Assembly (NCBI GenBank): GCA_949293185.1
Contig: CASFCQ010000006.1
Coordinates: forward strand, 3,389-67,388
Reading direction: 5' to 3'
From: an uncultured bacterium
GTDB lineage: Bacteria > Cyanobacteriota > Vampirovibrionia > Gastranaerophilales > Gastranaerophilaceae
Length of the DNA: 64,000 bases
Numbering within the stretch: position 1 is the stretch's first letter; each line of letters begins with the position of its first letter. Shown here piece after piece: positions 11,293 to 51,086 of this stretch. The position numbers and the translations under genes were made by a program. The notes under the pieces were generated by a model. That model made no database searches. It was not told the origin of the DNA and was given only the letters and a program-made list of their open reading frames with translations.

Positions 11293-11319
11293 TGGCGTTT
11301 GCGCTCAGACTAACTACGG

Positions 11320-11724: not shown

Positions 11725-11745
11725 ATTTTTCTCCTGATTGTCTGA

Positions 11746-12210: not shown

Positions 12211-12250
12211 AAGAGCCTGCTCATTATACAGAGCAGGACTCTTTTTATTT
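12211..12250. terminator. intrinsic terminator after hpf
   Basis: AGAGCCTGCTC...GAGCAGGACTCT stem flanked by A-rich and T-rich runs. Confidence 0.65.
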
Positions 12251-12267
12251 TTATGCTTTATGTTCTT

Positions 12268-12636: not shown

Positions 12637-12755
12637 GTATTGCCTCCATAAATAATGATACGTTTTTAGTATAACTCATCTGTTGTCGAGTTGCAATCAC
12701 ATTATGAGTTTTGTATAATCCGTATATAATAAAATCAGATTGAGGAGTTTAATAT

Positions 12756-35914: not shown

Positions 35915-35948
35915 TGCTTTTTACTCCATAATTGCTTAAGATTATACC

Positions 35949-36626
35949 ATGGAAATTTATTACATAAAAATTGACGAATTCTTAAAAAACACGCACAAAA
36001 CCTCGCTCGAAACTTTTTTGGACGGAAAAAATTTTGCCTCACCAAAACGTAGGCAGCAGTATGCACTGGGGCGATTTTTGATTAAATATGTTTTAAAAAA
36101 CCGTTTTAAAATCGACAACCCTAACATTCTTATTAAAGGCAAAAAGCCCTGTATATCTGAAGGGATAAAGTTCAGCCTTACGCACTCGCACAATTACGTT
36201 ATGGCTGTGTTCGACAAAGCAGAGGTTGGAATAGATTTAGAGCTTATGAAAAATCGGGATTTTGAAAAACTCTTTGAGCACTACAAACTTACCCCCGAAA
36301 ACAAAGACAAAATCACATTTTATCAGCTGTGGACAGCTTACGAAGCACGCATAAAGCTGCAGCAGCCACCGCTTTCACAGTTAAACGCAATCTTTAAAAA
36401 AGACTACTGTCTTTGTGTTTGTTCGTCAGAATCCTTAGATATAAGTAATATACTTAAAATATATGAACTCAAAAGACCTACCCACAATACAAATCCCAAC
36501 GAGCTTATCAACTTAAAACTCGTCATAGAAAGTAAAAAGAACGAAAACACGCTTGTTGCGCAGGAAATTAACACTGCTGCTTTAGAATTTGAAGAGTTAG
36601 AACCGTTGAACCTGAAAATAGAATAA
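35949..36626 (+). CDS. 4'-phosphopantetheinyl transferase (Sfp type)
   Basis: Motifs KGKKP, FSLTHS, GIDLE and WTAYEARIK. The last 223 nt overlap the convergent MMPL gene. Confidence 0.8.
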   Translation: MEIYYIKIDEFLKNTHKTSLETFLDGKNFASPKRRQQYALGRFLIKYVLKNRFKIDNPNILIKGKKPCISEGIKFSLTHSHNYVMAVFDKAEVGIDLELMKNRDFEKLFEHYKLTPENKDKITFYQLWTAYEARIKLQQPPLSQLNAIFKKDYCLCVCSSESLDISNILKIYELKRPTHNTNPNELINLKLVIESKKNENTLVAQEINTAALEFEELEPLNLKIE

Positions 36627-38593
36627 TCCATCGTAAACCCTATTATCAAAAACAAAGACAGCACATGAAACAGGTTTACACCATCTCCGGACAAGCCTAT
36701 CAACCCTATTGAAAACATTGAGCCGAGAAATGAAGGCAGAATTATTTTAAACGCATTAACATACCTGTAGATAAACGCAAGAATCACATATAATAGCAAA
36801 ATTGCCGGAGCAAACAAAATCAGACAGACTTTTCTGCAGCTGCCGACTTTTTGAGAGATGTCGTTTTTGAGGTTAATCACGGTTATCGGGTCTTTTTCCG
36901 GCTCAATAGCCTGTTTTATCGCATTCACCTCTCCGTTAACAACCATCACAGACGTATTTTCGTTATACAAAAAGTCTTTGAGCATTTTAAAGTTAGAGTT
37001 TTCAAGCGTTAAAAAATCCTCAGGCGGCTGCTCTTTTAAAAGTGCATCTATGCTTTTTTCAGGCAAAAATGCCGACGCATATGGCTTTAAAGAGTTTTTA
37101 TACAACTTCTTTATAAGTTCTCTGTTTTCAGTTTGCTGTTTTATCGACGGAACAAAACGGCTCAGCGCGTAGTATTCAATATTTTTTGCCCGCAAGAGTG
37201 CGCCTGTATTCTCTTCTTTTTCAAGGAGTTTTTGTGTATCAGGTGTCGAGGTTATTATAAAATTCAGGTTAAAATCAGTCTGAGAAAGCTGCGCATAAAG
37301 TTTTTCAGCCATTGCAAGAGATTTTGGCGGAACATACATATCCTTGATATCGTCGTTGAATTTCAGGTTAAACATGCCTGCTGCGGCAATCACAACCATA
37401 GCCGCAACAATCAAATATCTGTATTTTATATCCAAAGCTCGGAAATTAAACTCTCTCCGGTACGGAAGATTAAGTTTTTTACAAAACAGCGGATAAAACA
37501 GCACAACAGTCAGATACACAGTAACAAGTCCCGTAATTGTGTAAGTAGAAATCTGCTTTAAAAGTTCAATATTGGACAAAAGCAGCACAAAAAACGCGCA
37601 AACAGTGGTCAAAAGGCTCTGTGTAAGGCTCGGCATTATGAGCTTTAAATCCCTGTTGTGCGCAAAATAATGCAGGCAATAATCCACGCATATTCCGATT
37701 AAAGTCGAGGCAAAAACAAAAGTCAGTATGTGTATGGAATCAAAAAATACCGACGTTGTAAGATATCCAGTATACATTGCCAGAGCGAGGCTTGCGCCTA
37801 TCGGAATAAGAATTTTAAACGAATTAAAATAAAATTTGCAAAGCAGTATAATAAACAACGACGAAAGCACACATATAAGATTAATTTCTTTCATTGATTT
37901 TGAGCTTGCATAATAAGTATGCACGGGAGCGCCGGCTATATAGATTTTCACGCCTTCGTCCGATACGGAGTCTTTTAACACAACAAGCTCCTTCATCCGC
38001 TCATTAAGCAGAGTAGGCGACAGGGCAAGTTCTTTTTTTATGTTAAACTGCGCCAGCCTGTAGTATTTGCCGTCTTTTTCCGTTTCCTGAGTGCCTGACG
38101 CAGAACCAAAGCTCATCACATAGTCAGTAAGCAAAAGAAACGGGTCCTTATCAAGCGGAAGAAGCGTCAGCCCCATAGGGTTGTACAGTCTTTCATAAGC
38201 CTCCTGCTTCAGGGTTTCATACTGATTTGTTTTTATAAGATTTGCACTGTGCTGCGACAAAAGTCCGCTCCGGTATTTTTTATACGATTCTAGCATAGGC
38301 GCAACATCAGTGTTGTCAGTATAAAAAGCGTTTTTATCAAGTTTTTCAAAAAAGGTTTTAAAAGCGTCATCGAGTTTTTCATAGTCTTCGCTTTCAAAGA
38401 CAGCGTTAATTTTATTAGACTGGCGTTTGCTCAGGTCAACAAGAATCGTATCGGTTTTACTGTTAGTCAAAACAGCCTTTAGAATATTGGTTTCCGTTGT
38501 TTTTGGATTAAAAAACACAACTACGCTCAGCAGTGCAATCACTGTAATAAAAAGTATTCTCGCTATATTAAGTGGTGTTATTTTCATTTGCAA
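36404..38593 (-). CDS. MMPL/RND-superfamily exporter (ApeM-like)
   Basis: 729 aa with two blocks of TM helices separated by periplasmic domains. Confidence 0.85.
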   Translation of the reverse strand: MQMKITPLNIARILFITVIALLSVVVFFNPKTTETNILKAVLTNSKTDTILVDLSKRQSNKINAVFESEDYEKLDDAFKTFFEKLDKNAFYTDNTDVAPMLESYKKYRSGLLSQHSANLIKTNQYETLKQEAYERLYNPMGLTLLPLDKDPFLLLTDYVMSFGSASGTQETEKDGKYYRLAQFNIKKELALSPTLLNERMKELVVLKDSVSDEGVKIYIAGAPVHTYYASSKSMKEINLICVLSSLFIILLCKFYFNSFKILIPIGASLALAMYTGYLTTSVFFDSIHILTFVFASTLIGICVDYCLHYFAHNRDLKLIMPSLTQSLLTTVCAFFVLLLSNIELLKQISTYTITGLVTVYLTVVLFYPLFCKKLNLPYRREFNFRALDIKYRYLIVAAMVVIAAAGMFNLKFNDDIKDMYVPPKSLAMAEKLYAQLSQTDFNLNFIITSTPDTQKLLEKEENTGALLRAKNIEYYALSRFVPSIKQQTENRELIKKLYKNSLKPYASAFLPEKSIDALLKEQPPEDFLTLENSNFKMLKDFLYNENTSVMVVNGEVNAIKQAIEPEKDPITVINLKNDISQKVGSCRKVCLILFAPAILLLYVILAFIYRYVNAFKIILPSFLGSMFSIGLIGLSGDGVNLFHVLSLFLIIGFTMDYSIFRFNGSNSSNSKAAVLISCATSVFSFFLLSMTSFKLISSLGFVLWVGLLSSYILSILLISKDSDEQTQRQ

Positions 38594-39132
38594 TCCGTAT
38601 AGTTTATGGCTGTTTTGCTGTTTTGTGTTTCTATAACCATATTATCAATGACTTTTTGACCTTTTATGTTAATAAGTTTCAGTGCCGCTGCAGGTTTAGA
38701 ACCTTTTTTAGGTTTTAATGCCAATTCCCAGCGGTTGTTTTGCAAAGACATATAATAGATATCGAAGTTTTTTTCCAGATATGTATAGTTTTTGTTTGCC
38801 AGTGCTTTTACAATGGAGCTTATATGTTTATTCTGGTCTGTTGTGTATGAAGCAACAGATTTTACAGGATAAGTAGTTGAAAAAGTAACGCCTTTTTCTT
38901 TCTCAAACTTAAAATTTCCGCCGGATTTCAGGGTTACCGTTGAGGTTGTACTATTTTTAACAGACTTTTCCTGAGTGAATTTGCATGATGTATCGCTAAA
39001 TTCCGGCAAGTTTTTTGCTGCTTCTTTAGCAGTTATTTGGTGGTTAAAAATACTGTCTGCGTTCGCTCTCATGGTGCCTAACCCCGTTACCAAAAGCAAA
39101 AACAAAATGCATAAAATATTTTTAATTTTCAT
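38584..39132 (-). CDS. LolA-like lipoprotein-carrier fold protein (ApeL-like)
   Basis: 182 aa with a signal peptide. Its position and size match the LolA-like gene of APE clusters. Start overlaps the upstream gene. Confidence 0.6.
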   Translation of the reverse strand: MKIKNILCILFLLLVTGLGTMRANADSIFNHQITAKEAAKNLPEFSDTSCKFTQEKSVKNSTTSTVTLKSGGNFKFEKEKGVTFSTTYPVKSVASYTTDQNKHISSIVKALANKNYTYLEKNFDIYYMSLQNNRWELALKPKKGSKPAAALKLINIKGQKVIDNMVIETQNSKTAINYTDCK

Positions 39133-39538
39133 AGCTATCTATTCTCTCTTTTAAAATATCAGGTACTGTGTAGACTGTTTTTCTTGTTTCTATTTCAACA
39201 CAGATTTGCATCGTCTTTGCGCTGAAAAGTTTTGCTCCTGTTTTTTCGTCAAAAATTGTATATTTAAAATTCAAAGACGGTTCAATAGATTCCAGCTCGG
39301 TTTTAATAAGGAGTTTTTGCATAAATTCGCAGGGAGTTATAAACTTCATCTCCATTTTTGCAACAGGATAAGCATAACCTGCCTCTTTAATATCATCGTA
39401 TGTACAGCCGATTTTTGATAAAAAATCACAACGTGCAGCCTCAAGATATTTTACATAGTTTCCGTGCCAGACAACATTCATCGGGTCAAGGTCATAAAAT
39501 TCTACCTGTGTTTTATAAGTTGTTTCAATCTTTTTCAT
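39122..39538 (-). CDS. 4HBT hotdog thioesterase (ApeK-like)
   Basis: 138 aa with VEFYDLDPMNVVWHGNYVKYLE. Confidence 0.8.
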   Translation of the reverse strand: MKKIETTYKTQVEFYDLDPMNVVWHGNYVKYLEAARCDFLSKIGCTYDDIKEAGYAYPVAKMEMKFITPCEFMQKLLIKTELESIEPSLNFKYTIFDEKTGAKLFSAKTMQICVEIETRKTVYTVPDILKERIDSYEN

Positions 39539-41156
39539 CTATTGTCATCACTCCGCTCGAACAAATTTGTTCATCTCGTTTATACATATAATTTATCAAA
39601 TTATTTTTTCTTTCAAATACAAGCTTAAGTTTTTCATCAGGCTTAATAATTTTTGAAAACTTAATTTTTTTTACACAATCATTTGAAACACCGTTTCCAA
39701 AAGCGTCTGATGCAAAGAAATGCGCAAAATACAGCTGTACAACCCCCGGCAATACAGGGAATCCGTTAAAATGGCCTGTAAAGAAATTGCAGCTTAAAGG
39801 GAATGTTAAGTCATATACGGCACTGTGAGAATCTTTTTGGACTCCGAAAACAAACGGCATTGAAATATTGGTTTTAAAAATTCTTTCAAGTTTTTCTGTA
39901 TCAATTTTACCCGTCTTGGTTTTTGGAAGCTCGTGCAAAAATTTCCATTTTTGCGGAACAATTTCCACTCTGTCTTTTAAAGTGTTTTTAAAAAAAGATG
40001 TAAGTTTTAATATTGAATTATCTTTATCAAAAAACAAATCGATTCCTTTTACTGTCAACACAACTGCACATGCAAGTTTTTCACCTGACTTAAAACACCA
40101 GCAGGATTGAATCAAATGAGGCACAGAGTTTATAAGTTCTGTTTCCACCTCCGGAGCTGATACTCTTTTTTCCTGAATTTTAAAAACTCTGTCAGCCCTG
40201 CCACGCAGTACAAAATGTTTGTCATCTTTTATCTGTACAATATCGCCGAGCGTAACAGAATCCTGAATAAAAAACGGAGAAGATACAACAAGCTGAGAGT
40301 TGTCATCCGTTGATATTTTTACTCTGTTCAAAACAGTCAAGTCTTTATCATCACCACAGCTTCTGTAAGCTATTGTGCCTGTTTCCGTACTTCCGTAAAT
40401 ATCAATAACATTACCGGAGTGATTAAGATATTTAAAAAGTCCGTTATTTAATTTTGCACCTGCACTAAAAATAAGAAAAGGCGAGTAACTGTTTTTTACC
40501 TCATATTTTTGAAATTTTTCAAGAAACGATGGTGTAGAGATAAACACGCTATCTTTAAAATCCGCGTCATCTGGATAGCAGACTTCTGTTGTATCAAGCA
40601 CAAAAGACCCCCAAAAGCATAGTGGAAGCATAAAATAAAAAGAAAAAGCAAACATATGCTGCGGATGTGTTGAAGTTAAAAATCTGAACTGTGTATTATC
40701 ACATTTTGATAAAGCAAAAAACTCTTCATAAAGACAATTAGCTTCTGCTATCACATTAGCAAGAGTTTTTTGCACATTTTTTGGCTGCGAAGTTGAACCT
40801 GATGTATAAAAGTTTATTAAAACATTTTCAGGCTCTATCCTAAAAAAATCCGGCTGTTCAGCAGGTTGAAGTGATTTGTCAACAACAATGTATTCAAAAT
40901 CCAAATATTTAAGCTTCGATGCATCGGTAAGAAGAAAAATATGTTTTCCTGAAAAAATACACGAGAAAAACCACACGCAAAAATCAAACGCACATCTGCT
41001 TAAAATAACTACGTTATCTGCTTTTTGAGTGTTTAAAAACGCAGCACCTGCGGCAACAAAGTTTTTAAATTCTTTTAATAAAAAATTTTTTTCTTTGTGT
41101 ATGAACAGAGTTTTGTCATCAAATTGTTTTGTATGAAATATATCAAACAGATTCAT
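39525..41156 (-). CDS. AMP-dependent (aryl/acyl) ligase fused to FabA/FabZ-like dehydratase (ApeH+ApeI-like)
   Basis: 543 aa with adenylation motifs YTSGSTSQPK, YGSTETG and KTKTGK. The C-terminal FTGHFNGFPVLPGV is a hotdog dehydratase signature. Confidence 0.8.
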   Translation of the reverse strand: MNLFDIFHTKQFDDKTLFIHKEKNFLLKEFKNFVAAGAAFLNTQKADNVVILSRCAFDFCVWFFSCIFSGKHIFLLTDASKLKYLDFEYIVVDKSLQPAEQPDFFRIEPENVLINFYTSGSTSQPKNVQKTLANVIAEANCLYEEFFALSKCDNTQFRFLTSTHPQHMFAFSFYFMLPLCFWGSFVLDTTEVCYPDDADFKDSVFISTPSFLEKFQKYEVKNSYSPFLIFSAGAKLNNGLFKYLNHSGNVIDIYGSTETGTIAYRSCGDDKDLTVLNRVKISTDDNSQLVVSSPFFIQDSVTLGDIVQIKDDKHFVLRGRADRVFKIQEKRVSAPEVETELINSVPHLIQSCWCFKSGEKLACAVVLTVKGIDLFFDKDNSILKLTSFFKNTLKDRVEIVPQKWKFLHELPKTKTGKIDTEKLERIFKTNISMPFVFGVQKDSHSAVYDLTFPLSCNFFTGHFNGFPVLPGVVQLYFAHFFASDAFGNGVSNDCVKKIKFSKIIKPDEKLKLVFERKNNLINYMYKRDEQICSSGVMTIDEKD

Positions 41157-41161
41157 TTTTA

Positions 41162-41593
41162 TTACAAATTATGTTTCTTTTTAAAACGGATTCTAAAAAT
41201 ATATTCTATCGCAAAAAACAGCCCCAGTAAAATATAAGATACGCAGCCGTTAAAAATCATCCAAATTTTATCCGACATAAAGAGTGTTGCAACAGACGCA
41301 AAAAACTGTATGAGTAAATATATACACCAGATGTAGGTCAGATTTTTTGTATAAGCTTTTGTTTTCGGGTGCAGCTCTCCCCCGCCCTCTGAAATACGCG
41401 CAAATTTTTGTATAACTGTTTCTTTGTCAAAAAGCGAGGAAAAAAATATCAGAAAAATACAAAAGTTCATTATCACAGGGTACAATTTCAACTCTCTCAA
41501 CCCTGTAAAATAAAAAAGTGCAATAACAAAAAAAGTAAACAGGGTTGAAAAAACGAAGCCGAACTTTTGAAAAATATTACGAAGCTTTTTCAT
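41162..41593 (-). CDS. small integral membrane protein (ApeG-like position)
   Basis: 143 aa with 4 predicted TM helices. Its 4-nt overlap with the upstream ACP gene suggests translational coupling. Confidence 0.6.
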   Translation of the reverse strand: MKKLRNIFQKFGFVFSTLFTFFVIALFYFTGLRELKLYPVIMNFCIFLIFFSSLFDKETVIQKFARISEGGGELHPKTKAYTKNLTYIWCIYLLIQFFASVATLFMSDKIWMIFNGCVSYILLGLFFAIEYIFRIRFKKKHNL

Positions 41594-41844
41594 TGAGCAA
41601 GAAGCTTTTCTACCGCATCAACAACATCATCAACGGTTCTGATTTCTTTAAAATTGTCAGGCGAAATTTTTTTGTTTGTATATTCCTGTAGTCTTACAGC
41701 AAGGTCAACGGCATCAATACTGTCGAACTCTAAATCTTCAAACAAATTTGCATCAGCTGAAATTTTTTCCTGTTCAATTTCAAAATCATTGACAAGAATG
41801 TCTTTTAATACGTTAAAAATTTCATCTCTTGAATATTCTGCCAT
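41590..41844 (-). CDS. acyl carrier protein
   Basis: 84 aa with the phosphopantetheine site in LEFDSIDAVDL. Confidence 0.9.
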   Translation of the reverse strand: MAEYSRDEIFNVLKDILVNDFEIEQEKISADANLFEDLEFDSIDAVDLAVRLQEYTNKKISPDNFKEIRTVDDVVDAVEKLLAQ

Positions 41845-41856
41845 ATTTACAATACC

Positions 41857-42126
41857 TTATGCCTGAGTGTTTCTGATAAAATCAGCCAATGTTTTTACAG
41901 AATAGAAATGTTTTTTGTTTTCTTCTTTGTCGCTGCCCAAAGAAAGTTTATATTTTTTCTTTAAAGCCATACCGAGTTCCAGAGCATCAATAGAATCTAA
42001 CCCCAAACCGTCAATAAATAAAGGGGCATCAGTATCGATGTCAGAAGGCTTGATATCCTCCAGCTCCAATGATTCGACTATAAAAGTTTTTAATTCGTCT
42101 TCCAGACTCAAATTTTGATTATCCAT
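41857..42126 (-). CDS. acyl carrier protein
   Basis: 89 aa with the phosphopantetheine site in GLGLDSIDALEL. Confidence 0.9.
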   Translation of the reverse strand: MDNQNLSLEDELKTFIVESLELEDIKPSDIDTDAPLFIDGLGLDSIDALELGMALKKKYKLSLGSDKEENKKHFYSVKTLADFIRNTQA

Positions 42127-42189
42127 AAAAACATTATTGCGTAATAGATAATTAAAGTCAATTCAAAGTTATACCTACTGTTTTAAGAT

Positions 42190-42312
42190 GTCCGAGAAAA
42201 ATTCGTGATAAGGAGCAAAGCGACGTGAACGAATTTTTGGAGGGTCACATTGAAAAGGTGAGCAGTGACGGCTCGAAGGCTCGAGGCGGCAACTGCGACA
42301 CTAGATTAGATA
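42190..42312. repeat. ~85-nt intergenic element, copy 2, carrying a 37-nt GC-rich insertion (42262-42298)
   Basis: Aligns with 15485-15570. The extra segment GCAGTGACGGCTCGAAGGCTCGAGGCGGCAACTGCGA interrupts the second GTGACAC repeat. Confidence 0.7.
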
Positions 42313-42325
42313 AAAATACTGCATG

Positions 42326-42334
42326 TGGTATAAT
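42326..42334 (+). promoter_or_regulatory. extended -10 promoter TGGTATAAT facing the CRISPR array
   Basis: Perfect TGnTATAAT. The predicted TSS near 42341-42342 coincides with the ATGATG at 42339-42344. Confidence 0.4.
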
Positions 42335-42338
42335 AAAA

Positions 42339-42497
42339 ATGATGAAACAACATTCGATGATTATATTTTTTAATATAGGTTCTTTGCTGATGCTGATTAT
42401 AAGCAGCAATCTTGGGATTGACACGAGTAAGTATTGTCTGTTCTGGGCACTGGGAAATATAGCAATATACCAAATTGAGAAGAAATATAAAGGTTGA
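42339..42497 (+). CDS. possible 52-aa membrane peptide (leaderless?)
   Basis: MMKQHSMIIFFNIGSLLMLIISSNLGIDTSKYCLFWALGNIAIYQIEKKYKG. This is the C-terminal part of track ORF 42225-42497, whose N-terminal part overlaps the non-coding repeat element. Confidence 0.3.
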   Translation: MMKQHSMIIFFNIGSLLMLIISSNLGIDTSKYCLFWALGNIAIYQIEKKYKG

Positions 42498-42771
42498 AGA
42501 GTTTTGTTAATTACATATGAATTCTAACCCTAACATCAAAATGTTATAATACCAAGAGGCAAGGATAATAATCCACATTGGTTCTGATTTCTCTTAATTT
42601 AAAATATGTTATAATTGAAATTATCTAAATAACATCTTTTTTTATGTTTTGATTTTCTCTTAATTTAATTTTTTAGCAGGCGTTTTTAACCTATAATGTA
42701 TTCAGGGTAGTACCACACTCCCGCCGCACACGCATTTTACTAAGAAATCTGCGGAAAGGGGGTGAAAAAAT

Positions 42772-42846
42772 ATGACCAAGATAATAATAAAGACCGTTAT
42801 AACGGTTCTTATAACGGTCTTACAAATTATCATTTATTGGTTATAG
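42772..42846 (+). CDS. 24-aa hydrophobic peptide, type I toxin-like
   Basis: AAGGGGGTG SD lies 8 nt before the ATG. Peptide is MTKIIIKTVITVLITVLQIIIYWL. The SD pairs with upstream CACTCCC in a 12-bp GC-rich hairpin (42716-42764). A hairpin lies downstream at 42857-42887. Confidence 0.45.
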   Translation: MTKIIIKTVITVLITVLQIIIYWL

Positions 42847-42900
42847 GGTACTAAGTGAAGCTCTAAGGAAGTATTCTTTAGGGCTTCCCCCTACAATTAC

Positions 42901-42928
42901 AGTATAACATATTTGGCTTAAATATCAA
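42901..42928 (-). promoter_or_regulatory. antisense promoter convergent on the small ORF
   Basis: On the minus strand: TTGATA (42928-42923), 16-nt spacer ending in TGT, and TATACT (42906-42901). The predicted antisense RNA would cover the 3' hairpin and the 3' half of the ORF. A possible stop is the AAGACCG...CGGTCTT hairpin (42821-42790) followed by a T-rich run. Confidence 0.45.
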
Positions 42929-43543
42929 CTTTGCCAACTTTGTGTTTTTGGGCTTATATTAATTTAAAATATGTTATAATGGAATAACTTTTATTCCTTT
43001 ACTTTGCCAGGTTTTGATTTTCTCTTAATTTAAAATATGTTATAATTTTTGAGCCGGTCGCAATTTGACCACTATCGTTTTGATTTTCTCTTAATTTAAA
43101 ATATGTTATAATCTCAGGTGATTCCGCACAGCTGGCAAGCTGTTTTGATTTTCTCTTAATTTAAAATATGTTATAATGTCTAATGAATGTATTTGCATTT
43201 TTGCTCCGTTTTGATTTTCTCTTAATTTAAAATATGTTATAATGGCAAAGGCTCTAAGTCATTACCTAAAATGGTTTTGATTTTCTCTTAATTTAAAATA
43301 TGTTATAATTTTCCACCAGATTAAATCGCCGTTGATACCGTTTTGATTTTCTCTTAATTTAAAATATGTTATAATCAAGACTTAATGTTAATGTACCCCC
43401 GAGAGGTTTTGATTTTCTCTTAATTTAAAATATGTTATAATGGTAATTCAGTTCCTTTTATCAGTCTTAAGTTTTGATTTTCTCTTAATTTAAAATATGT
43501 TATAATAGGATATACAAAATTGAATAAATGATATATAATACAA

Positions 43544-43675
43544 ACGTAATATATTTTAAGTTAAGAGACCAATCATAATTGACAAGAGAATAGTTTGCTC
43601 CTCTGCTTAATTGTACGAATAGACTCATTCTCTAAACCTCAACAAAATACACTACAATGATATTCTACCTTAAAA
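43544..43675 (+). ncRNA. tracrRNA (3' end uncertain)
   Basis: Anti-repeat 43546-43579 pairs with repeat positions 1-33, with a small internal bulge and a few G-U pairs. An extended -10-like TGATATATAAT lies just upstream. Same orientation as the crRNAs and convergent with cas2. AGAGAAT / ATTCTCT stem at 43585-43633. Confidence 0.75.
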
Positions 43676-44005
43676 TTACCAGAATGTCATCTGTTTTTCT
43701 GCATTTTCGCCTGCTTTTTTCTTGTATTTTGATTGTTTATAATCATACTTGTCTATACACACAGCAAGCCCCCACTGTTTGTCCGTTATATAAAAAGCCA
43801 CTATTGAACCTGTTGAGGGTGCTATGAGTTTTAAATTTCTTATGTGCTGTTCTGTTTTGTCATAAGTTACGCAAGACCTTACATATATTGAGTTTTGCAG
43901 CATAAAATACCCTTGATTCAACAAAGATTTTCTGAACGCATTTGCCTGTCTCTGGTTTTATTTTTCCACAACAGGCAAATCAAAACACACAACAAGCCAG
44001 CCCAT
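43676..44005 (-). pseudogene. cas2: cas2 with in-frame TAA at codon 16
   Basis: ATG at 44005 lies 8 nt after the cas1 stop, with a GAGGAG SD. Reads MGWLVVCFDLPVVEK-stop(43960-43958)-NQRQANAFRKSLLNQGYFMLQNSIYVR... in one frame. The track ORF 43676-43924 is only the distal part. Confidence 0.8.
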
Positions 44006-44012
44006 ACGATAT

Positions 44013-44960
44013 TTACTCCTCATATTCCCTGTTCCTGTGTTTGTCTATGTGCAGATATTGTTCGTTTATGTCAGGCAAAAATATCTTTGAACAATCAAAT
44101 TTTGTATAAGCATCAACTATTTTTTCCACGTAAATATCTATTGTGTCAATGAGCTTGTAGCTTATGTTATCTATTTTTATTCTGTAATTTTTTATACATT
44201 CTGACAGGTATTTAAACCAGGCTTTGTAATTTTCCTGTTCGTAATCAAATTCGCACTCCTGTACAAATTGATAAAAATAATAATCAATAAAAGCCCTGTA
44301 CGGCTCCATTAAGTCATAAACAAGCGGCGTACTTTTGTATTTGCCTTTGTGGTGAATACCGAGGCTTGCAATTAGACCGTGAACTATAACAGAGCGGTAA
44401 ACCAGAGAATTTATTACTGCATAGCCGTAATTAAGACAGCCGTTTTCAAAGGTTTCTGCTGCCAGATGTTCTCTTTTCATAGGGTTGCCGATTTCGACAA
44501 AATAATTCTGCCAGTACTGTTTTGCTATGTTTGCTTCATTCATAAGCGGACGGTTTATCAGGTTATACAGGTTGTGTCCACTGCAGCCGATAAGGTCAAG
44601 ATTTTTTGCCTGATTTGTTACTTTAGCGAGCAGTATCTTTTTCCACAACTTAGTTTCAAAATCTATGTTTTGCTCTATCTGGCAATAAAAAACTTTAGGG
44701 CGTACAATCCTTTCTAAAGGTACGCTCCAACCTACGGGACGGTATGAAGTGTTGCAGTGCAGTATAACCACGTTATTTTCTAAAAGCCGTGCCAAACAGT
44801 TGTTGGAAAAAGCTATGCCCTGTGCTGCAACAATAATGGCACGTATGTCCGCTAAGGCAATTGATTTTATTTCGCCTTCTTTATTTTTGCAAAACAACAG
44901 CCCCCTCTCAACTGAGAGGTAACAATCGGGTGTAGTGATATGCAGAATATGATAACTCAT
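44013..44960 (-). CDS. cas1: CRISPR-associated endonuclease Cas1 (type II)
   Basis: 315 aa with the conserved acidic/His residue context (KREHLAAETFENGCLNYGYAV, GIHH, DLMEPYR). Confidence 0.93.
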   Translation of the reverse strand: MSYHILHITTPDCYLSVERGLLFCKNKEGEIKSIALADIRAIIVAAQGIAFSNNCLARLLENNVVILHCNTSYRPVGWSVPLERIVRPKVFYCQIEQNIDFETKLWKKILLAKVTNQAKNLDLIGCSGHNLYNLINRPLMNEANIAKQYWQNYFVEIGNPMKREHLAAETFENGCLNYGYAVINSLVYRSVIVHGLIASLGIHHKGKYKSTPLVYDLMEPYRAFIDYYFYQFVQECEFDYEQENYKAWFKYLSECIKNYRIKIDNISYKLIDTIDIYVEKIVDAYTKFDCSKIFLPDINEQYLHIDKHRNREYEE

Positions 44961-44997
44961 ATTCTGTTTTTAATAATCATTTTTTAAAAATCAATGT

Positions 44998-47900
44998 TTA
45001 AGAACTATGTTTTTTGAAATTTGCATCAGTAAGGTTTTTTACACTTGAATCAATTTCAATTCCGTTATTACTTTCTAATTTTAAAACCCCATTTGTTTTA
45101 ATTGTTCTCAACTTATACACACCAGCAGGATGTGTAACAGTGCCGGCTTTAAACTCATTCGGGATATCAACAAGACAGCCGGAGTAGAACATTTGACCGC
45201 CCGCGTACAGTTTGCAGCCCATTTCAACAAGCTTGTCTCTTACTTCCTGTGTCTTTTTGTTGGAATACACGGGCATAACTTTTACAGCACCTTTGTCGTT
45301 GTAGTAGAGTATTTGCCCTTTATGTCCTTTTGAGCATTTAAACTGTCCCTTAGTGCCTTTTGTTCCGTAGTCGCAGTATTCTCCGATTCTGTCACGTCCG
45401 TTTGAGTCTTGCTCAAGTGTACCTTCTGAAACGACAATCATAACTTTTTTGACTTTTGTTTTCTTTTTGGGATGAATATAGTCTTTAAGGTAGTTATACC
45501 ACTCGTCCGCTGAAGGCTTTTGTTCGAGCTTGTTTAAGAGGTCTGTTTTTATAGCCTCATCGACTATATTTCTTACCTTTTTATCTTTGGGTTCAAGTGT
45601 TTCCAGCGTAACTCTGTTTGTTATACAGGCTTTGCCGTTGATTATTCGTTTTCCGTATATTGTTTCAAGCGGTCTTGTGTTGCTTTTTAAGGCTTTTTTA
45701 TTTGCATAAGGATAAGGTATTATGCCGTCTATAACCTTTTTTACAACATCAGGATTAAAGCCTTCTATAACGTCTTTGTTCAGAGTTTTGTCATACTTAA
45801 ATTCTCTTGCGTAACTTATACAAATAGCATCGAGAGCGTGGTGTTTGTCGTTCTGGCGGTTTTTCTTTTCCGCATCGCCGAGTATTGCATTAAGCCCGTA
45901 TCTTTTTCGGATTGCAAAAGTTGAAGAACCGTTATTTACATAGATATGTCTGCTTTCGCCTTCCACCTGCAAGCCCCAGCCGAAAGTAAACGCTGTAATT
46001 TGCTGTGCAATTTTGGCAATATGACTTGTTTCTGCCAGTCCGTTATAACTTTCAATAAGTTTTTCACAATCTTGCGGTTTGCTTGTTAACAGTTCGTATT
46101 TTTTCTTACCGAGTTGTTTTTTTATGTCATTAAGTCTGTTAACGTAATTTGCCCAGATTTCCTTGTCTTTGGAAAGCCATTCATAAGGAGTTCGTCCCTG
46201 TTTTTTCTGGTTCTCTGCCCTGAAACAGAGCACTTTGTTATATAATGCATCATTGCCGCCCATTGTCCGCGGATAAATGTGGTCAATCTCGCATTTATCA
46301 AAGTCGGAAATTGCAATAGGCTGCCCGCTATAGATACATTTTCCGCCCTGAATCTTTAATAGTTTTGCTTTTTCAAAATTTGTCGGACTCAAAGCGTTTG
46401 CGTCAACGAGTTCCTGTTTTATCTGGTTGTTTTCTTTTTCCTGATTTTTCATATAAGATTCGGCACTCTGGGCTTTGATTCTGCCAAACAGTGAGTTATC
46501 CGCACCTTCTCTTACAAATTCAAAGATAACTTCATCGGGTTTTCCGTATTTTTCTGCAAGATAAAACAGTAAATCCCTGAAAATTTGCAGACGGTTTCTT
46601 ACAACAGGATTGGTTATACCGCCTATCATTAGATCTGTTTTTTCTCTTGTGTTTTCACCTATAGCCGCATTTTCATTCCTGTTGTCAGGTATATAGAGAT
46701 TATTCCAGCCCCCTATTTTTGACAGCATTGTGCGGATTTCTTCTTCCGTTATTCCGTCTTTTGTGTCTTGCGGGTCTATGTATTTTGAAACCTCCATATT
46801 TTGAGGATACAATTCGCCAGAGAGGATTATATCTATCATAATTTGACAGGCTCTGCGGCAAAAAGATGAACGCCCGCTGATATCAGCTTTCATAGGTTCA
46901 ATTTTGTCTATAATTTTTTGTCCGATTACGTCTTCAATTTCTTTTTTAGTAATTGTTGTATCGAGTTTATTGGCTCTGCCTTCTGTTTTAACAAGCCAGT
47001 TTTGATAAATTGTACTTATATCAGACGGGCTGAGTCTGACTTTATCACCGCTGCCGTTTGTTATTCTCAAATTTTTTAATTTTAACAAGAGCACCAGAGT
47101 AACGTTTTCGAGAGTATTTGCTTTGCAAACATTTCTTTTAGGCAGAAGTTTGCATTTGCTGATAATTCTGTTGTCGAATCTCGGAATTTTCTGCCCTAAC
47201 ACACCTTGCCAATCGTGTTCGCTGCCGAGATATTTGCGATAATCAGGGTTTACATAAGAACCGTAGGCTTCTCTATATTCGCCGTACAAAAATTCTTCAG
47301 GAGTATATTTCTTCAATTCCGGCAATTGTTTTTGAGCGTTTGTCCAAAGAGCAGTTAATTCTTTTTCAACAAGGTTTCTCGGTGCTACATAGTTTGTTGC
47401 ACGTACTTTGTTGAAATTTTGCTGGGGGTTGAACGGTTTAAATTCGTCCGGTGAGTCCTCTGACCACATGCCGAGTCTTAATGCATCATAGTAGCAGGGG
47501 TATTTGTAGTTTTCGTTTTGAATTAATTCTTCGCCGTTTTCCTGTGTGTATTTTTTAGCAAGTTCGAGATTTTCTTTGTCATCGTCAGCCTGGGCTGATT
47601 TCCAGGCCAGATTCGGGTCATACCCTCTGCGCTGCATTGCGTTATGCAGTGCTTTATATATCTGCCAGATTTCAAGTTTTCTGTTTTGAAGAAGTGCGAT
47701 TCTTAAAAGACAGGAATTATAAATCGTAGAATCCCCTTTAGCTGCAAATTCTTTTGTGAATTTTTTGTCATCTTTGCTTAAAATCTCAAGATTGCAATCC
47801 TGCCATATTTTATCAAAATATTTTTCACGTGCTTTATGAGCATTAAGGGTTCTGAAGATTCGTCTTCTGTCCCTTAATGAAGCAGCATCAGCATGATCAA

Positions 47901-48006
47901 TATCAATGATTACTGATTCCGCCTCTTGTATATCATGCCCGCAGCGTGCACAATAGCCGATGCTTGTTTTACCTAAATCGAATGCAAATACTTTTTTATT
48001 TTCCAT
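44998..48006 (-). CDS. cas9: Cas9, compact (1002 aa) type II-C-like
   Basis: RuvC-I FAFDLGKTSIGY, Arg-rich bridge helix LRDRRRIFRTLNAHKAR, HNH EIDHIYPRTMGGNDALYNKVL and RuvC-III NDKHHALDAI. Start set at MENKK (ATG 48006, AGGGGG SD). Confidence 0.95.
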   Translation of the reverse strand: MENKKVFAFDLGKTSIGYCARCGHDIQEAESVIIDIDHADAASLRDRRRIFRTLNAHKAREKYFDKIWQDCNLEILSKDDKKFTKEFAAKGDSTIYNSCLLRIALLQNRKLEIWQIYKALHNAMQRRGYDPNLAWKSAQADDDKENLELAKKYTQENGEELIQNENYKYPCYYDALRLGMWSEDSPDEFKPFNPQQNFNKVRATNYVAPRNLVEKELTALWTNAQKQLPELKKYTPEEFLYGEYREAYGSYVNPDYRKYLGSEHDWQGVLGQKIPRFDNRIISKCKLLPKRNVCKANTLENVTLVLLLKLKNLRITNGSGDKVRLSPSDISTIYQNWLVKTEGRANKLDTTITKKEIEDVIGQKIIDKIEPMKADISGRSSFCRRACQIMIDIILSGELYPQNMEVSKYIDPQDTKDGITEEEIRTMLSKIGGWNNLYIPDNRNENAAIGENTREKTDLMIGGITNPVVRNRLQIFRDLLFYLAEKYGKPDEVIFEFVREGADNSLFGRIKAQSAESYMKNQEKENNQIKQELVDANALSPTNFEKAKLLKIQGGKCIYSGQPIAISDFDKCEIDHIYPRTMGGNDALYNKVLCFRAENQKKQGRTPYEWLSKDKEIWANYVNRLNDIKKQLGKKKYELLTSKPQDCEKLIESYNGLAETSHIAKIAQQITAFTFGWGLQVEGESRHIYVNNGSSTFAIRKRYGLNAILGDAEKKNRQNDKHHALDAICISYAREFKYDKTLNKDVIEGFNPDVVKKVIDGIIPYPYANKKALKSNTRPLETIYGKRIINGKACITNRVTLETLEPKDKKVRNIVDEAIKTDLLNKLEQKPSADEWYNYLKDYIHPKKKTKVKKVMIVVSEGTLEQDSNGRDRIGEYCDYGTKGTKGQFKCSKGHKGQILYYNDKGAVKVMPVYSNKKTQEVRDKLVEMGCKLYAGGQMFYSGCLVDIPNEFKAGTVTHPAGVYKLRTIKTNGVLKLESNNGIEIDSSVKNLTDANFKKHSS

Positions 48007-48029
48007 ACAACCCCCTGTATGATGAGGTA

Positions 48030-48038
48030 AGTATAACA
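48030..48038 (-). promoter_or_regulatory. extended -10 promoter TGTTATACT for cas9
   Basis: Lies in the 42-nt gap between the acyltransferase stop (48049-48051) and the cas9 ATG. The -35 is poor. Confidence 0.45.
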
Positions 48039-48048
48039 CATTGAGTTT

Positions 48049-48792
48049 TTAAATTCTATCTTTTATTACGGAATTTATACGGCGGCGAAGCCTGATTTCA
48101 TTGATGTCCGGAGTTTTAAAATCGTCAATGTTTATTGTGTCATTGATTTTCAGGTAATAGTTAACCGGCTTTTCTCCTGCGTCGTATATTTTTTGGTGTT
48201 TTGCAAGGAATTTATAATCACAGGTTATGTGCACGGGCACAATAGGCGCATTTGCATATATTGCAACTGAGGCTGCTCCGCTGTGGAGTTTTAGGTCTTC
48301 TCCTTCAACACTGCGTGTGCCTGTCGGGAAAATTATTACGTTATATCCTTCTGAAAGTGCGTGTTTTGCTTCTTCTTTAAGTGTGTCGTTATTTTCATCA
48401 TTTATAAGGTAGGTGGATTTTACGATGTTGCTCATAATCGGGTTTTTCTTTATTTCATTTTTTACAACACACAAGGTGTCGGGTATTAAGCCGATTAAAA
48501 GTACGATATCTATGTAGCTGGGGTGGTTTGCAACAATTACACTGCCTTTGAGTTGTGTTAAAAAATTTTTCTGTTCGTCTGTTACGTTAAATTTTATAGA
48601 ACCGGTTTTTTGCATAAAATCGCTGAAAAAAGCCCAGAGGTTATGCACAACACGACAAAAAACTTTGCGTCTGTTTTCTTTTTTTATAAACAAACTCATC
48701 AATGGTATTACGACAAGCCCGAGCACAAGCGAACCTGCTCCAAAAAAAATGAACGAAAAAACAACCACAAACGCACGGAAAAACCTTTTCAT
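48049..48792 (-). CDS. lysophospholipid / 1-acylglycerol-3-phosphate acyltransferase family (ApeD-like)
   Basis: 247 aa with an N-terminal TM segment, the HX4D motif NHPSYID and FPTGTRS. Confidence 0.85.
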   Translation of the reverse strand: MKRFFRAFVVVFSFIFFGAGSLVLGLVVIPLMSLFIKKENRRKVFCRVVHNLWAFFSDFMQKTGSIKFNVTDEQKNFLTQLKGSVIVANHPSYIDIVLLIGLIPDTLCVVKNEIKKNPIMSNIVKSTYLINDENNDTLKEEAKHALSEGYNVIIFPTGTRSVEGEDLKLHSGAASVAIYANAPIVPVHITCDYKFLAKHQKIYDAGEKPVNYYLKINDTINIDDFKTPDINEIRLRRRINSVIKDRI

Positions 48793-49431
48793 TTATGATT
48801 GACTCCTGACAATGAAAAATACTTTATCGCTGCTTGAAAAGCTGTCTGTTTTGCTTTCGCAAAAATTTTTAAAGTTTTCAAATTCGTTTCCGGCATCAAT
48901 CGCAGCGCTGCATGTGTTTGTACATAATTCGATTTTTACGGAGTCTTTTGTCGGTGTAGCAGAAATCAAACAGCCACAGGCTTTTAAATCTCTGTATGCA
49001 TCAGCAAAACAGTACAAGACCTCACTGCCTTTTTGCGCACACATAAGACTTTCCAAAAGCCCTGCACTAAAGGTGTTTTCTCCGGCAGCAAGCGCGTTAT
49101 AACTCTTTTTTATTTTGTTGAGCAAAGAAAACTGTCCTGCCACGCAGTTGTGAACAGATGTGCTGAAAGTGAAGGGAGAAACTTCGTTGTCCTCCTGATA
49201 CTGTGCTATTATTTTATCCAACCTGTCCAGTTCGCCGTATTGAGAGGCAAAAACAATTTCTGTTTCATTGCCGTTGTAGGCTTTGTGCATAACACTGAGC
49301 GCAGCTTTATCCACAAGGCTGAGTTTTCTCCTCGTCATAGGCGGCATAAAGGATAAATCAATAAGATTTTCTGCGTTTTGCCCGTCAATAAAATTTATGT
49401 TAGATATATAAAATACACTTTTTTCATTCAT
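48793..49431 (-). CDS. ketosynthase-like protein without full KS domain (chain-length-factor/ApeC-like)
   Basis: 212 aa, abutting the acyltransferase gene with no gap. Resembles a KS N-terminal fold. Assignment is by position in the cluster. Confidence 0.6.
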   Translation of the reverse strand: MNEKSVFYISNINFIDGQNAENLIDLSFMPPMTRRKLSLVDKAALSVMHKAYNGNETEIVFASQYGELDRLDKIIAQYQEDNEVSPFTFSTSVHNCVAGQFSLLNKIKKSYNALAAGENTFSAGLLESLMCAQKGSEVLYCFADAYRDLKACGCLISATPTKDSVKIELCTNTCSAAIDAGNEFENFKNFCESKTDSFSSSDKVFFIVRSQS

Positions 49432-49449
49432 GGTAGTATTATATCAAAT

Positions 49450-51063
49450 ATGGCAAATATTTCTATCACATCATACAGCGCAATTTGTGACCTCGGTACA
49501 AACGTAAAAGAAATTTTTGAAAACTCGCTTTTGGCGGGCAAAAATTTTTTTACGCCAGATGAAAATATTATAAAAGGTAAAAAACTTTATCTTGGCAAAG
49601 TCAGTGCTGTACTGCCAAAAATTAAAGAGGCAAAATTTGATACAAGGACAAATGCACTGCTGTTGCATTGCAGCAATGCAATACAAAACGATATTGACGC
49701 TGTTGTAAAAAAATACGGTAAAGACAGAATCGGTGTTGTTATTGGTACAACCAATGCCGGCGTTAACGAATATGAAAAAAGCCACGAGGTTTTCCACTCG
49801 CAAATAGGTTCTCCCGCTCTATTTTTAAAGGAGCATCTCGGGCTTAAAAGCTATTGCAGCGGAGTTTCTACAGCCTGCACCTCGGGAATAAAAGCCTTTT
49901 CAACGGGGGTAAAACTTCTTGAAAACGGAATCTGCGATGCTGTTTTATGCGGGGCGGCGGATGCTGTGTCTAAAGTTCCTGTATTCGGCTTTAGCGCACT
50001 TGAAGTTATGTCTCAATCAAACTGCAAACCGTTTTCTAAGAACAGAGACGGTATTAATATAGGCGAGGGCGCTGCTCTTTTTATACTGGAAAAAGATGTG
50101 AATAAAGGCATTAGAATACTCGGTATCGGAGAAACCTCCGATGCATACCACGGAGCAACCCCTGACCCTGAAGGTACTCAGGCTGCGGCAGCAATTACAC
50201 AGGCGCTTGAGCAGGCAGGATTAAAACCTGAAAATATTGATTACATCAACCTTCACGGCACAGGCACTGTATCAAATGATATTATGGAAGCAAATGCCGT
50301 GTACAAGGTTTTCAAAGATAAAGTGCCGGTCAGCTCTACAAAATCTTTGACCGGACATTGCCTCGGAGCATCATCCGGAGTGGAAAGCGCATTATGCCTT
50401 GCTTTTCTTGAGGACGAAATTAACAAAGAAAAATTTCTTATTCCTCACAATTTTGACGGGGTTTATGATGATACCCTGCCGGAGATAAAACTTGCCAAAC
50501 ACAATGAAAAGGCTGAAAATAACCGTTATGTTATGTGTAATGCATTCGGGTTCGGCGGTTCTAACGCGGTTATCATATTCGGCAAAAATCAAGCATCAGA
50601 GCAGAAGAGCGATTGTTTTGAAACAGACCTGTCAAAAATTTTGCCGCATGATGCGCCGATGATACTTATTGATAAAATTTTGGACGTGAATATTAAAGAA
50701 AATTACGTAAAAACGCAAGTTGAAATCAACAAAGACAAGGTCTTTTATGATGCCGCCATGGGCGGAGTTTCTCCGCTTGCAGGTATCGAGTTTATGGCTC
50801 AAACAATCGGATGTTATTCGTATTTTAAGCGCGGCGGCGGTGACCCCAAAATAGGTTTCCTTCTTGGCAGCCGTTCTTACAATTGTTCGCTCGAAAAATT
50901 TGAGAACGGAAAAAACTATGAAGTTATTGTAAGAGAAGTGTTTGGCGACAATGAACTTGTTTCGTTCGAGTGTTTTATCTATAATGATGGTATAGAATGT
51001 GCAAAAGCAGTGGTTAACGCATATCAGCCCGAAAATTTTGATAATTCCAAAATTGAACTTTAG
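49450..51063 (+). CDS. beta-ketoacyl-ACP synthase fused to hotdog dehydratase (ApeO+ApeP-like)
   Basis: KS active-site Cys in GVSTACTSG, His residues in HGTGT and GHCLGASS, and C-terminal ILPHDAPMILIDKI. Start moved to MANISITSY (49450). Confidence 0.85.
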   Translation: MANISITSYSAICDLGTNVKEIFENSLLAGKNFFTPDENIIKGKKLYLGKVSAVLPKIKEAKFDTRTNALLLHCSNAIQNDIDAVVKKYGKDRIGVVIGTTNAGVNEYEKSHEVFHSQIGSPALFLKEHLGLKSYCSGVSTACTSGIKAFSTGVKLLENGICDAVLCGAADAVSKVPVFGFSALEVMSQSNCKPFSKNRDGINIGEGAALFILEKDVNKGIRILGIGETSDAYHGATPDPEGTQAAAAITQALEQAGLKPENIDYINLHGTGTVSNDIMEANAVYKVFKDKVPVSSTKSLTGHCLGASSGVESALCLAFLEDEINKEKFLIPHNFDGVYDDTLPEIKLAKHNEKAENNRYVMCNAFGFGGSNAVIIFGKNQASEQKSDCFETDLSKILPHDAPMILIDKILDVNIKENYVKTQVEINKDKVFYDAAMGGVSPLAGIEFMAQTIGCYSYFKRGGGDPKIGFLLGSRSYNCSLEKFENGKNYEVIVREVFGDNELVSFECFIYNDGIECAKAVVNAYQPENFDNSKIEL

Positions 51064-51086
51064 CGGGTTTTGCGGGGGAGAATTAA

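Follow-up and report, generated by a model that had tools for sequence, protein, structure and literature searches.

A probable type I toxin-antitoxin-like module in the trailer-end repeat of a Gastranaerophilales type II-C CRISPR array

What kind of element divides a repeat of a CRISPR array into two parts, and does it act through the Cas9 system in whose locus it lies? The question is raised by a 64-kb stretch of DNA, here called the window, in which 290 bp separate two pieces of one repeat at the end of a type II-C array. Named relatives of the Cas1 encoded in the window are annotated as "Candidatus Gastranaerophilales", a lineage of non-photosynthetic gut relatives of cyanobacteria. Comparison loci and contigs from other assemblies and from phages carry the labels L001 to L078. 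We put a probability of roughly 0.78 on the following answer. The 290 bp represent a copy of an autonomous type I toxin-antitoxin (TA)-like module that is common in Gastranaerophilales and their phages, is lodged in the oldest repeat of the array, and operates without Cas9. The assignment to type I TA systems is strongly supported by comparative sequence evidence.

The divided repeat is defined by two exact fragments of the 36-nt array repeat, GTTTTGATTTTCTCTTAATTTAAAATATGTTATAAT. A left stub (42646-42668, plus strand) is identical to repeat positions 1-23, and a right part (42959-42980, plus strand) is identical to positions 15-36. The two fragments overlap by 9 bp, TTAATTTAA. These flanks and their overlap had been reported in the first-pass annotation of the window, and they proved exact when rechecked against the eight perfect repeats. 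The segment between them (42669-42958, 290 bp) lacks a terminal inverted repeat, and none of its open reading frames (ORFs) exceeds 43 aa, in line with the earlier statement that it lacks a transposase and clear inverted termini.

The segment is instead organized around a very short coding sequence. A putative membrane toxin ORF occupies 42772-42846 on the plus strand (stop codon included) and encodes the 24-codon product MTKIIIKTVITVLITVLQIIIYWL. Its Shine-Dalgarno (SD) sequence, AAAGGGGGTG, lies at 42755-42764, 7 nt before the ATG at 42772. Pairing of CACTCCC with GGGGGTG is predicted to sequester this site within an anti-SD/SD hairpin (42716-42764, plus strand; CACTCCC-g-CCGCA ... TGCGG-aaa-GGGGGTG), which forms part of the minimum-energy fold. 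A predicted sense promoter (TTTTTA-16-TATAAT, 42670-42697, plus strand) has its -35 box at the stub junction and a -10 column that is conserved in the family alignment described below. The corresponding toxin mRNA would span 195 nt (42704-42898, plus strand, with inferred ends). Its predicted fold reaches -74.7 kcal/mol (z = -8.2), and that of the whole 290 nt reaches -87.6 kcal/mol (z = -5.5). In the predicted structure, the 5' AGGGUAGUACC of the mRNA pairs with GGUACU...CCCU beyond the stop codon, near the 3' end, and this would close the molecule. A 3' hairpin of the sense RNA (42857-42887, plus strand) also belongs to the minimum-energy fold.

A second transcription unit is predicted on the opposite strand. 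The promoter-consensus scan identified a convergent antisense promoter (TTGATA-16-(TG)TATACT, 42928-42901, minus strand) for a putative antitoxin RNA of about 110 nt (42894-42778, minus strand), whose ends are placed by this promoter and a terminator. The RNA would be able to pair with the final two thirds of the ORF as well as with the 3' hairpin, and its own fold is predicted at -36.4 kcal/mol (z = -5.9). The candidate terminator is a perfect 13-bp hairpin inside the ORF (42790-42821) with a T-rich tail on the minus strand, a feature absent from the list of the first-pass annotation.

Homologues place this layout in a wider family. A distant BLASTN search against phage genomes retrieved "Dulem virus 31" (PP511318.1), a tailed phage of 35.8 kb obtained from lemur faeces, with 75.7% identity over window positions 42711-42861 (E = 4e-19). 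Its copy lies between tail genes and lysis genes (holin-like and peptidoglycan recognition protein, PGRP), has the identical 24-codon ORF span, start, and stop, and preserves all three hairpins through compensatory changes. Two IMG/VR contigs carry copies closer to the window than that of Dulem virus 31. A pattern built from the blocks common to the window, Dulem virus 31, and the two IMG/VR contigs was then used to search GTDB species-representative genomes. This search located 41 loci, nearly all in metagenome-assembled genomes of Gastranaerophilales, and three more copies lie on phage or viral contigs. The family thus comprises the window copy and 44 further copies, 45 members in total. Whether the segment is multi-copy or mobile had been left to a BLASTN comparison; the 290 bp have no second copy in the rest of the window, whereas 44 relatives occur in other genomes and phages. 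No match to the cassette was found among PLSDB plasmids. Two stricter patterns for viral contigs, GGAAAGGGGGTG...TTATAGGGTAC and TACCACACNCC..., also gave no match, being too strict for SD variants.

The genomic contexts of these copies are varied. Some adjoin phage tail-fibre, holin-like, or lysis genes, and others lie beside fusA, hibernation-factor, nitroreductase, NUDIX, or XRE genes. Tandem or multiple modules occur in L047 (1742-2257), L061 (3731-4601), and L035 (2389-2602 and 7109-7296), an arrangement that is common for type I TA families.

Family membership and the conservation of the ORF, structures, and promoters are taken here as established. An intact ORF of 23-26 codons that closes at the common TAG is present in 42/45 members. 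Its length differs among members by whole codons only, and the peptides diverge by 30-60%. The SD consensus is situated 5-7 nt upstream of the start in most copies, provided that an internal ATG is taken in the five 26-codon copies. Third codon positions are the most variable in the family alignment, and compensatory stem changes within the ORF always preserve hydrophobic residues. The consensus peptide reads M-x-x-x-I-I-K-x-A-I-x-V-x-I-A-x-L-x-I-I-L-x-x-L. The peptide resembles Escherichia coli ShoB (sequence taken from NC_000913.3). BLASTP aligns the peptide to ShoB with 13/22 identities (pairwise E = 7e-7), the family hidden Markov model scores ShoB at 28.4 bits, and none of 2000 composition-preserving shuffles reached the observed identity (P < 0.0005).

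The predicted RNA structures are conserved in the same manner. Across the family, 98% of base-pair cells are paired and 14 pairs show double changes, a level attained by 0/500 shuffles; slid controls gave 38-48% pairing. The two closing helices that join the 5' and 3' ends are 97-99% paired in the 45 sequences. In the ORF-internal stem, 6/10 pairs show compensatory changes and nearly all are Watson-Crick, and the stem could therefore form on either strand. The 3' hairpin has double changes in 8/12 pairs and contains many U-G/G-U pairs, which exist on the plus strand only. About 40 nt upstream of the SD, an anti-SD heptamer pairs with it at 7/7 positions in 35/45 members and at 6/7 in the remainder. 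In each of the 44 copies that contain the region, the convergent promoter agrees with the sigma-70 consensus at 10/12 positions or more, and 5-8 nt (7 nt in 40/44) separate the end of its -10 box from the motif TAGGGG. The sense promoter is weaker, with a mean consensus match of 7.9/12.

Most elements of this layout had been proposed from the window alone, and they have held. The strong SD with its hydrophobic 24-codon ORF, the GC-rich hairpin that buries the SD, the 3' hairpin with G-U pairs on the plus strand only, and the near-consensus promoter on the opposite strand are each borne out by the fold, the consensus scan, or the homologues. In 42 of the 45 family members, the ORF remains open to the same stop, and the three hairpins are upheld by compensatory changes. 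The 44 relatives share the hydrophobic ORF, the SD-sequestering fold, the 5'-3' closing helix, and a strong convergent promoter with a terminator for a predicted antisense RNA of about 110 nt, a combination that supports the type I TA layout.

From these elements, we infer transcripts, toxicity, and an antitoxin mechanism as follows. The weak sense promoter would produce an mRNA of about 195 nt that is closed by the 5'-3' helix and has its SD locked in the anti-SD hairpin, so that the 24-residue ShoB-like membrane peptide would normally remain untranslated. The much stronger convergent promoter would supply the antisense RNA of about 110 nt, terminated at the ORF-internal hairpin. Full complementarity to the 3' two thirds of the mRNA would lead to duplex-dependent decay or blocked activation, as described for RatA acting on txpA. 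In an ancestor of the lineage, one such copy would have become lodged in the trailer-end repeat of a type II-C array and been inherited since. The array would stay functional after the insertion, because the promoter inside the repeat is retained in its right part, and the module would operate independently of Cas9.

The inheritance of the array copy can be followed across sister strains. A look-up with the neighbouring acyl-carrier protein yielded ten strain-level contigs (L015-L024). In nine of them, the trailer end holds stub, cassette, and repeat 3' part, with 96.9-98.3% identity to the window. The cassette is 98.6% identical in L001 and 95.3% identical in L031, which gives a total of 11 other assemblies of the lineage with the cassette; it is absent from L020. 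The repeat position at which the stub breaks off is shared by L015-L019, L021-L024, and L031. Among the 44 other family members, L031 is the only copy in a CRISPR array. It belongs to the same CRISPR lineage as the window and has a different genomic context. The other 43 copies show no CRISPR array within the fetched loci of 2-14 kb.

The location of the cassette in the oldest repeat follows from spacer sharing. Sister strains have only the spacer farthest from cas2 in common (#10 in L017/L018/L019 and #9 in L015/L016/L021), the oldest one of L017/L018 being cttgttttacaaagataaatgggcagatgt. The cas-distal end is therefore the old, or trailer, end, and new spacers enter beside the trans-activating CRISPR RNA (tracrRNA) gene. 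The trailer-end repeat is the one that holds the cassette.

Five of the ten strains have lost the effector genes. L015, L016, L021, L022, and L023 lack window positions 48048-43932 (cas9, cas1, and the 5' end of cas2) and contain about 380 nt of other sequence instead. The tracrRNA region and 1-3 repeats remain in all five, as do the toxin ORF and its SD, both intact. The array position of the cassette and its presence in these cas9-less strains are likewise treated as established.

L020 provides an uninterrupted allele, for which the first-pass annotation had proposed a search. The same flank is present there and is followed directly by an intact, perfect repeat, which indicates from the aligned sequences that the stub once belonged to a full repeat. 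The simplest account of the alignment is a secondary deletion through recombination between the stub and a downstream repeat, rather than an ancestral empty site, because L020 and L017 share 99.2% identity in the flank, the cas genes of L020 lie inside the range of variation seen among strains with the cassette, and the oldest spacer of L017/L018 is absent from L020.

Homology with the 43 non-CRISPR copies covers approximately 42690-42921, from promoter to promoter, with a left limit at about 42684-42692 and a right limit at 42893-42921, depending on the copy. The outer termini, 42669-42683 (15 nt) and 42922-42958 (about 37 nt), occur in the array copy only and have no homologue in those 43 copies; the last 30 nt of the insert (42929-42958) are likewise shared with no non-CRISPR copy. 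Short matches to 42918-42948 were detected beside the terminal half-repeats of cassette-free arrays in L002 (P = 0.04) and L005/L006 (P = 0.01), at marginal significance. Such matches may be relics of an older shared insertion. The antisense promoter also contains, at 42903-42914 on the minus strand, a 12-nt inverted exact copy of the promoter end of the repeat (positions 24-35, AAATATGTTATA). This identity probably reflects similarity to the promoter consensus, because phage copies have an equivalent promoter at the same place, and it may otherwise be a trace of recombination with a repeat.

Spacer content connects the host lineage with phages that carry the module. The spacer at 43310-43339 matches L014 (IMGVR_UViG_3300045988_176269) at 27/30 positions (11284-11313), within a gene just upstream of that phage's own module copy and 260 nt from it. 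In L031, one spacer has a match in Dulem virus 31 (PP511318.1). The lineage therefore meets module-carrying phages, which makes phages plausible donors, and the sequence matches suggest that the array copy is probably of phage origin.

The host locus is a type II-C system by gene content. Its cas genes (43676-48039, minus strand) comprise cas9, cas1, and cas2, with neither csn2 nor cas4, and this absence defines the assignment. ORF calls and Pfam families place cas9 at 48039-44998 (1013 aa), cas1 at 44960-44013, and cas2, with a premature stop, at 44023-43676, all on the minus strand. The tracrRNA anti-repeat and the 36-nt repeats agree with the same type. At the 5' end of cas2 (43958-44023, minus strand), codon 22 is TAA, where the sister strain L017 has GAA, and the frame is split into 21 aa and 82 aa. 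The broken cas2 may have disabled spacer acquisition in the window strain.

Eight perfect repeats extend over 43011-43506. With their spacers, the rest of the array spans 42981-43506 on the plus strand (8 spacers and 8 repeats), and new spacers join at the 43506 end. Each repeat ends at its 3' side in TGTTATAAT, an extended -10 box. In type II-C arrays of Neisseria and Campylobacter, CRISPR RNA (crRNA) is transcribed from a promoter within each repeat. By analogy, each repeat of the window should drive its own plus-strand crRNA from an internal promoter. The right repeat part retains this -10 box, which should drive the crRNA of the next spacer.

A candidate tracrRNA (43545-43660, plus strand) follows the array, with an anti-repeat that starts near 43545 and a promoter-like site (TATACA-17-TATAAT) at 43511-43539. 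The repeat:anti-repeat duplex is predicted at -27.9 kcal/mol, compared with -10.1 +/- 2.5 for shuffled repeats. Over the candidate region (43511-43660), the anti-repeat is bulged relative to the repeat. The candidate matches no Rfam family, and a Rfam scan of 41800-50000 at E <= 10 gave chance-level matches only.

Upstream of the stub lie remnants of older array units. A degenerate repeat, R' (42580-42615, plus strand), has five mismatches, all in its 5' half, and still ends in TGTTATAAT. Its aligned counterpart in the flanks of L017 and L020 is a repeat-like stretch that has decayed further. Between R' and the stub lies an orphan old "spacer", S1 (42616-42645, plus strand), which over its 3' half shows homology to the trailer flank in sister strains. 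The stub could still pair with the tracrRNA anti-repeat, at a predicted -16.0 kcal/mol.

Other foreign genes were observed at related Cas9 loci. In L069, a 1.8-kb insertion (9909-11735) precedes a solitary trailer repeat and is followed by a ParE-type TA (11921-12433). A ParE TA (10244-10787) adjoins the array in L071, a nucleotidyltransferase TA-like pair lies between cas9 and cas1 in L075-L078, and L002 has a 522-aa phage-like ORF (12581-14149) at or in its array. An nhmmer search of the stub-less related Cas9 loci (L002, L005-L008, L067-L078) with the family profile found no module copy. The trailer end of these arrays tolerates and gathers foreign DNA. A further observation concerns the flanks of the locus. 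The acyl-carrier-protein side (35868-42188, aryl-polyene-like biosynthesis genes) is only about 85% identical to L015-L024, and the other side of the CRISPR locus (48048-52354) is about 97% identical; this contrast may mark a recombination boundary at the array or close to it.

Several other explanations assign a different role or origin to the segment. The proximity to Cas9 recalls CreTA modules, in which CreT is repressed by the Cas effector guided by a crRNA-like CreA that partly matches the creT promoter (PMC8501985, PMC9458426). By this analogy, Cas9 with a crRNA-like guide, for example from R'-S1-stub, would repress the toxin, and loss of Cas9 or tracrRNA would kill the cell. Directly upstream, and co-oriented with the toxin gene, there do stand a degenerate repeat with a promoter, a spacer of 30 nt, and a 23-nt stub able to pair with tracrRNA, and CreA genes are likewise flanked by degenerate repeats (PMC8501985, PMC9458426). 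However, no window spacer, S1 included, shares an exact match of more than 9 nt with 42669-42958 or with the region upstream of cas9 (8 nt at most for S1 and the cassette), and the earlier remark that no convincing partial protospacer links the spacers to the cassette promoter stands with a longest exact match of 9 nt. The R'-S1 unit has decayed to about 100 nt of non-spacer sequence in sister strains with an unchanged cassette, 43 of the 44 other members lie away from CRISPR arrays, and the module has a conserved antisense antitoxin promoter of its own. Nor do the strains show addiction. The toxin ORF and SD are intact in the five strains without cas9 and cas1, so toxin control does not depend on Cas9, and the failure to prevent these deletions weakens a guard role. 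CreTA-like control, floated in the first-pass annotation as pure hypothesis, is thus largely refuted, and we leave it almost no probability. Cas9 might be involved in another way, through RNA processing. Because the -35 box of the module lies at the stub junction, much of the toxin transcription from the array copy could be read-through from the upstream repeat-internal promoter. In such an S1-stub-toxin RNA, the tracrRNA-paired stub could be cleaved by Cas9/RNase III to set an activating or inactivating 5' end, and thus, or by plain post-segregational killing, the module could anchor a mobile type II-C cassette. This wiring is improbable. The naturally occurring strains that have lost cas9 already speak against control that depends on Cas. 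The module might also be kept for benefiting the CRISPR locus, either by stabilizing the array or a mobile cas cassette through post-segregational killing or as a second line of abortive infection. Its retention at 95-99% identity in strains that diverge by as much as about 4% in their cas genes, its second context in L031, the possible right-end remnants beside the terminal repeats of the more distant arrays L002 and L005/L006, the ParE and nucleotidyltransferase genes at or in related Cas9 loci (L069, L071; L075-L078), and the precedent of Clostridioides difficile (PMC5961336) would fit such a role. Yet cas9 and cas1 were deleted in 5/10 sampled strains anyway, neither the shrinkage of arrays to 1-3 repeats nor the loss of the module in L020 was prevented, the other related arrays examined carry no copy, and the family is overwhelmingly free of CRISPR association. 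A benefit to the locus is accordingly a minority option, and rather unlikely.

The two remaining alternatives concern the nature of the 290 bp. A non-autonomous element similar to a miniature inverted-repeat transposable element (MITE) could have carried the TA module into an intact repeat and generated a 9-bp target-site duplication. The exact 23-nt and 22-nt repeat parts that overlap by TTAATTTAA, the intact-repeat allele at the same flank in L020, and the copies at many unrelated genomic sites, some in tandem, speak for such an event, but there is neither a terminal inverted repeat nor a transposase. The unique outer ends of the array copy, absent from all 43 non-CRISPR copies, imply that the segment is no MITE whose ends are conserved. 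L020, which is nested within the group that bears the cassette and has no copy of the shared oldest spacer, is better accounted for by stub-repeat recombination. Half-degenerate terminal repeats also close cassette-free arrays (L002, L005-L007), where only the 3' half is kept, and 42945-42958 matches the 5' half of the repeat at 8/14 positions. The duplication is therefore compatible with, and does not prove, insertion at a staggered cut. The claim that one repeat was opened by an insertion consequently survives in part: the stub did belong to a full repeat, as the L020 flank followed by an intact repeat indicates, whereas the 9-bp duplication is no proof of the staggered-cut step. An opened repeat is plausible; a MITE-like origin is doubtful. 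Alternatively, the ORF could be incidental to a structured non-coding RNA or a DNA hairpin element, with the peptide as a by-product of an AT-rich palindrome. The overlap of the ORF with a perfect hairpin whose palindrome yields the repeated VITV motif, together with the strong structural covariation, would be expected in that case. Against this stand the start, frame, length, and stop kept in 42/45 members despite the peptide divergence, the consensus SD, the concentration of variation at third codon positions, the compensatory stem changes that keep hydrophobic residues, and the ShoB similarity beyond composition-matched shuffles. An incidental ORF is very unlikely. Three narrower proposals were set aside. 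Treating the right flank as an ordinary degenerate terminal repeat of a second array lost force after the L020 allele and the same stub endpoint in three lineages had been found; aberrant Cas1-Cas2 integration is at odds with the 9-bp stagger, which does not fit duplication of a whole repeat; and an IS200/IS605-type or omega-RNA element has no supporting feature.

An autonomous, Cas9-independent type I TA-like module remains the preferred explanation, and several observations weigh against it. The 9-bp duplication hints at a transposition-like event, which this explanation does not cover. No canonical terminator is present after the sense RNA. Searches of Pfam, NCBIfam, and PHROG with eight family peptides returned nothing above noise; in a control, E. 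coli ShoB itself also found no PHROG, and therefore that library at least has no model for such peptides. L020 lost the whole module without apparent harm. In L022, from the equivalent of window position 42907, a deletion joins ...CAGTATAA directly to the last repeat; the antisense -35 box, the TG motif, the insert's right end, and every spacer are lost, and the toxin ORF is intact. If the L022 assembly is correct, the toxin of that strain would be poorly expressed or only mildly toxic.

The closest match in peptide sequence among known systems is ShoB/OhsC. The likeness extends to length and sequence, as seen from ShoB (MTDCRYLIKRVIKIIIAVLQLILLFL) and a family member (MKRQIIKSAIKVLIALLNLIYLFL). 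ShoB had been regarded as restricted to E. coli and Shigella. The antitoxin layout differs. The OhsC gene is divergent, and its RNA pairs with a long 5' untranslated region (PMC2887945), whereas the conserved partner promoter of the family is convergent and lies downstream of the ORF, and the predicted antitoxin would overlap the 3' end. The resemblance is therefore treated as similarity and not as family membership, and in any case a 24-residue helix is too short for its sequence to separate homology from convergence. A ShoB-like peptide with another antitoxin layout and with phage carriage bears on the horizontal spread of type I toxins and on the reinvention of antitoxin RNAs.

In layout, the module is like txpA/RatA or bsrG/SR4, and in the predicted logic of its mRNA it is like hok. 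The txpA/RatA and bsrG/SR4 modules belong to prophage-like elements of Bacillus subtilis and encode toxins of 38-59 aa. They share with the family a small hydrophobic peptide, a convergent cis-encoded antitoxin RNA that overlaps the 3' part of the toxin mRNA (predicted here), a strong antitoxin promoter beside a weaker toxin promoter, and both prophage and chromosomal locations. They differ in that there is no sequence similarity, the family peptide has 24 aa, the antitoxin terminator would lie inside the ORF, and the hosts belong to another phylum (Melainabacteria/Gastranaerophilales). With hok/sok, the family would have in common a toxin mRNA held inert by a 5'-3' fold-back helix and SD sequestration. 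Hok, at about 50 aa, is longer and has no sequence similarity to the family peptide, and Sok targets the 5' leader (mok) region rather than the 3' end. CreTA is comparable as a toxin gene beside degenerate repeats within a CRISPR-Cas locus (PMC8501985, PMC9458426, PMC10097628). In the window, by contrast, no guide matches the cassette, Cas9-less strains retain the toxin, and the conserved partner is an antisense RNA promoter.

The genomic setting has its nearest parallel in C. difficile. Type I TA modules of that species (CD2517.1/RCd8, CD2907.1/RCd9, and CD0956.2/RCd10) adjoin type I-B CRISPR arrays, some of them in prophages (PMC5961336). Their authors stated that such co-localization was then unreported for any other genome and proposed that it stabilizes the region (PMC5961336). 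The type I layout, the convergent overlapping transcripts (predicted in our case), and the proximity to CRISPR are common to both. The C. difficile modules lie beside type I-B arrays species-wide and have toxins of 40-60 aa, whereas the window contains a lineage-specific copy inside a type II-C repeat. The earlier suggestion that a TA cassette had not been described within a Cas9 array appears to hold for Cas9 arrays, and is to be qualified by the known co-localization of type I TA modules with type I-B arrays in C. difficile (PMC5961336). No paper mentioning both Melainabacteria and type I toxins was found in the literature, and the 45 sequences apparently constitute an undescribed type I TA family of Gastranaerophilales and their phages, with well-resolved predicted RNA structures and promoters. 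As far as the literature was searched, this is the first such module inside a repeat of a Cas9 array, and it extends the TA-CRISPR co-localization of C. difficile. It represents a new family and a new context, the Cas9 array repeat, for a known kind of system.

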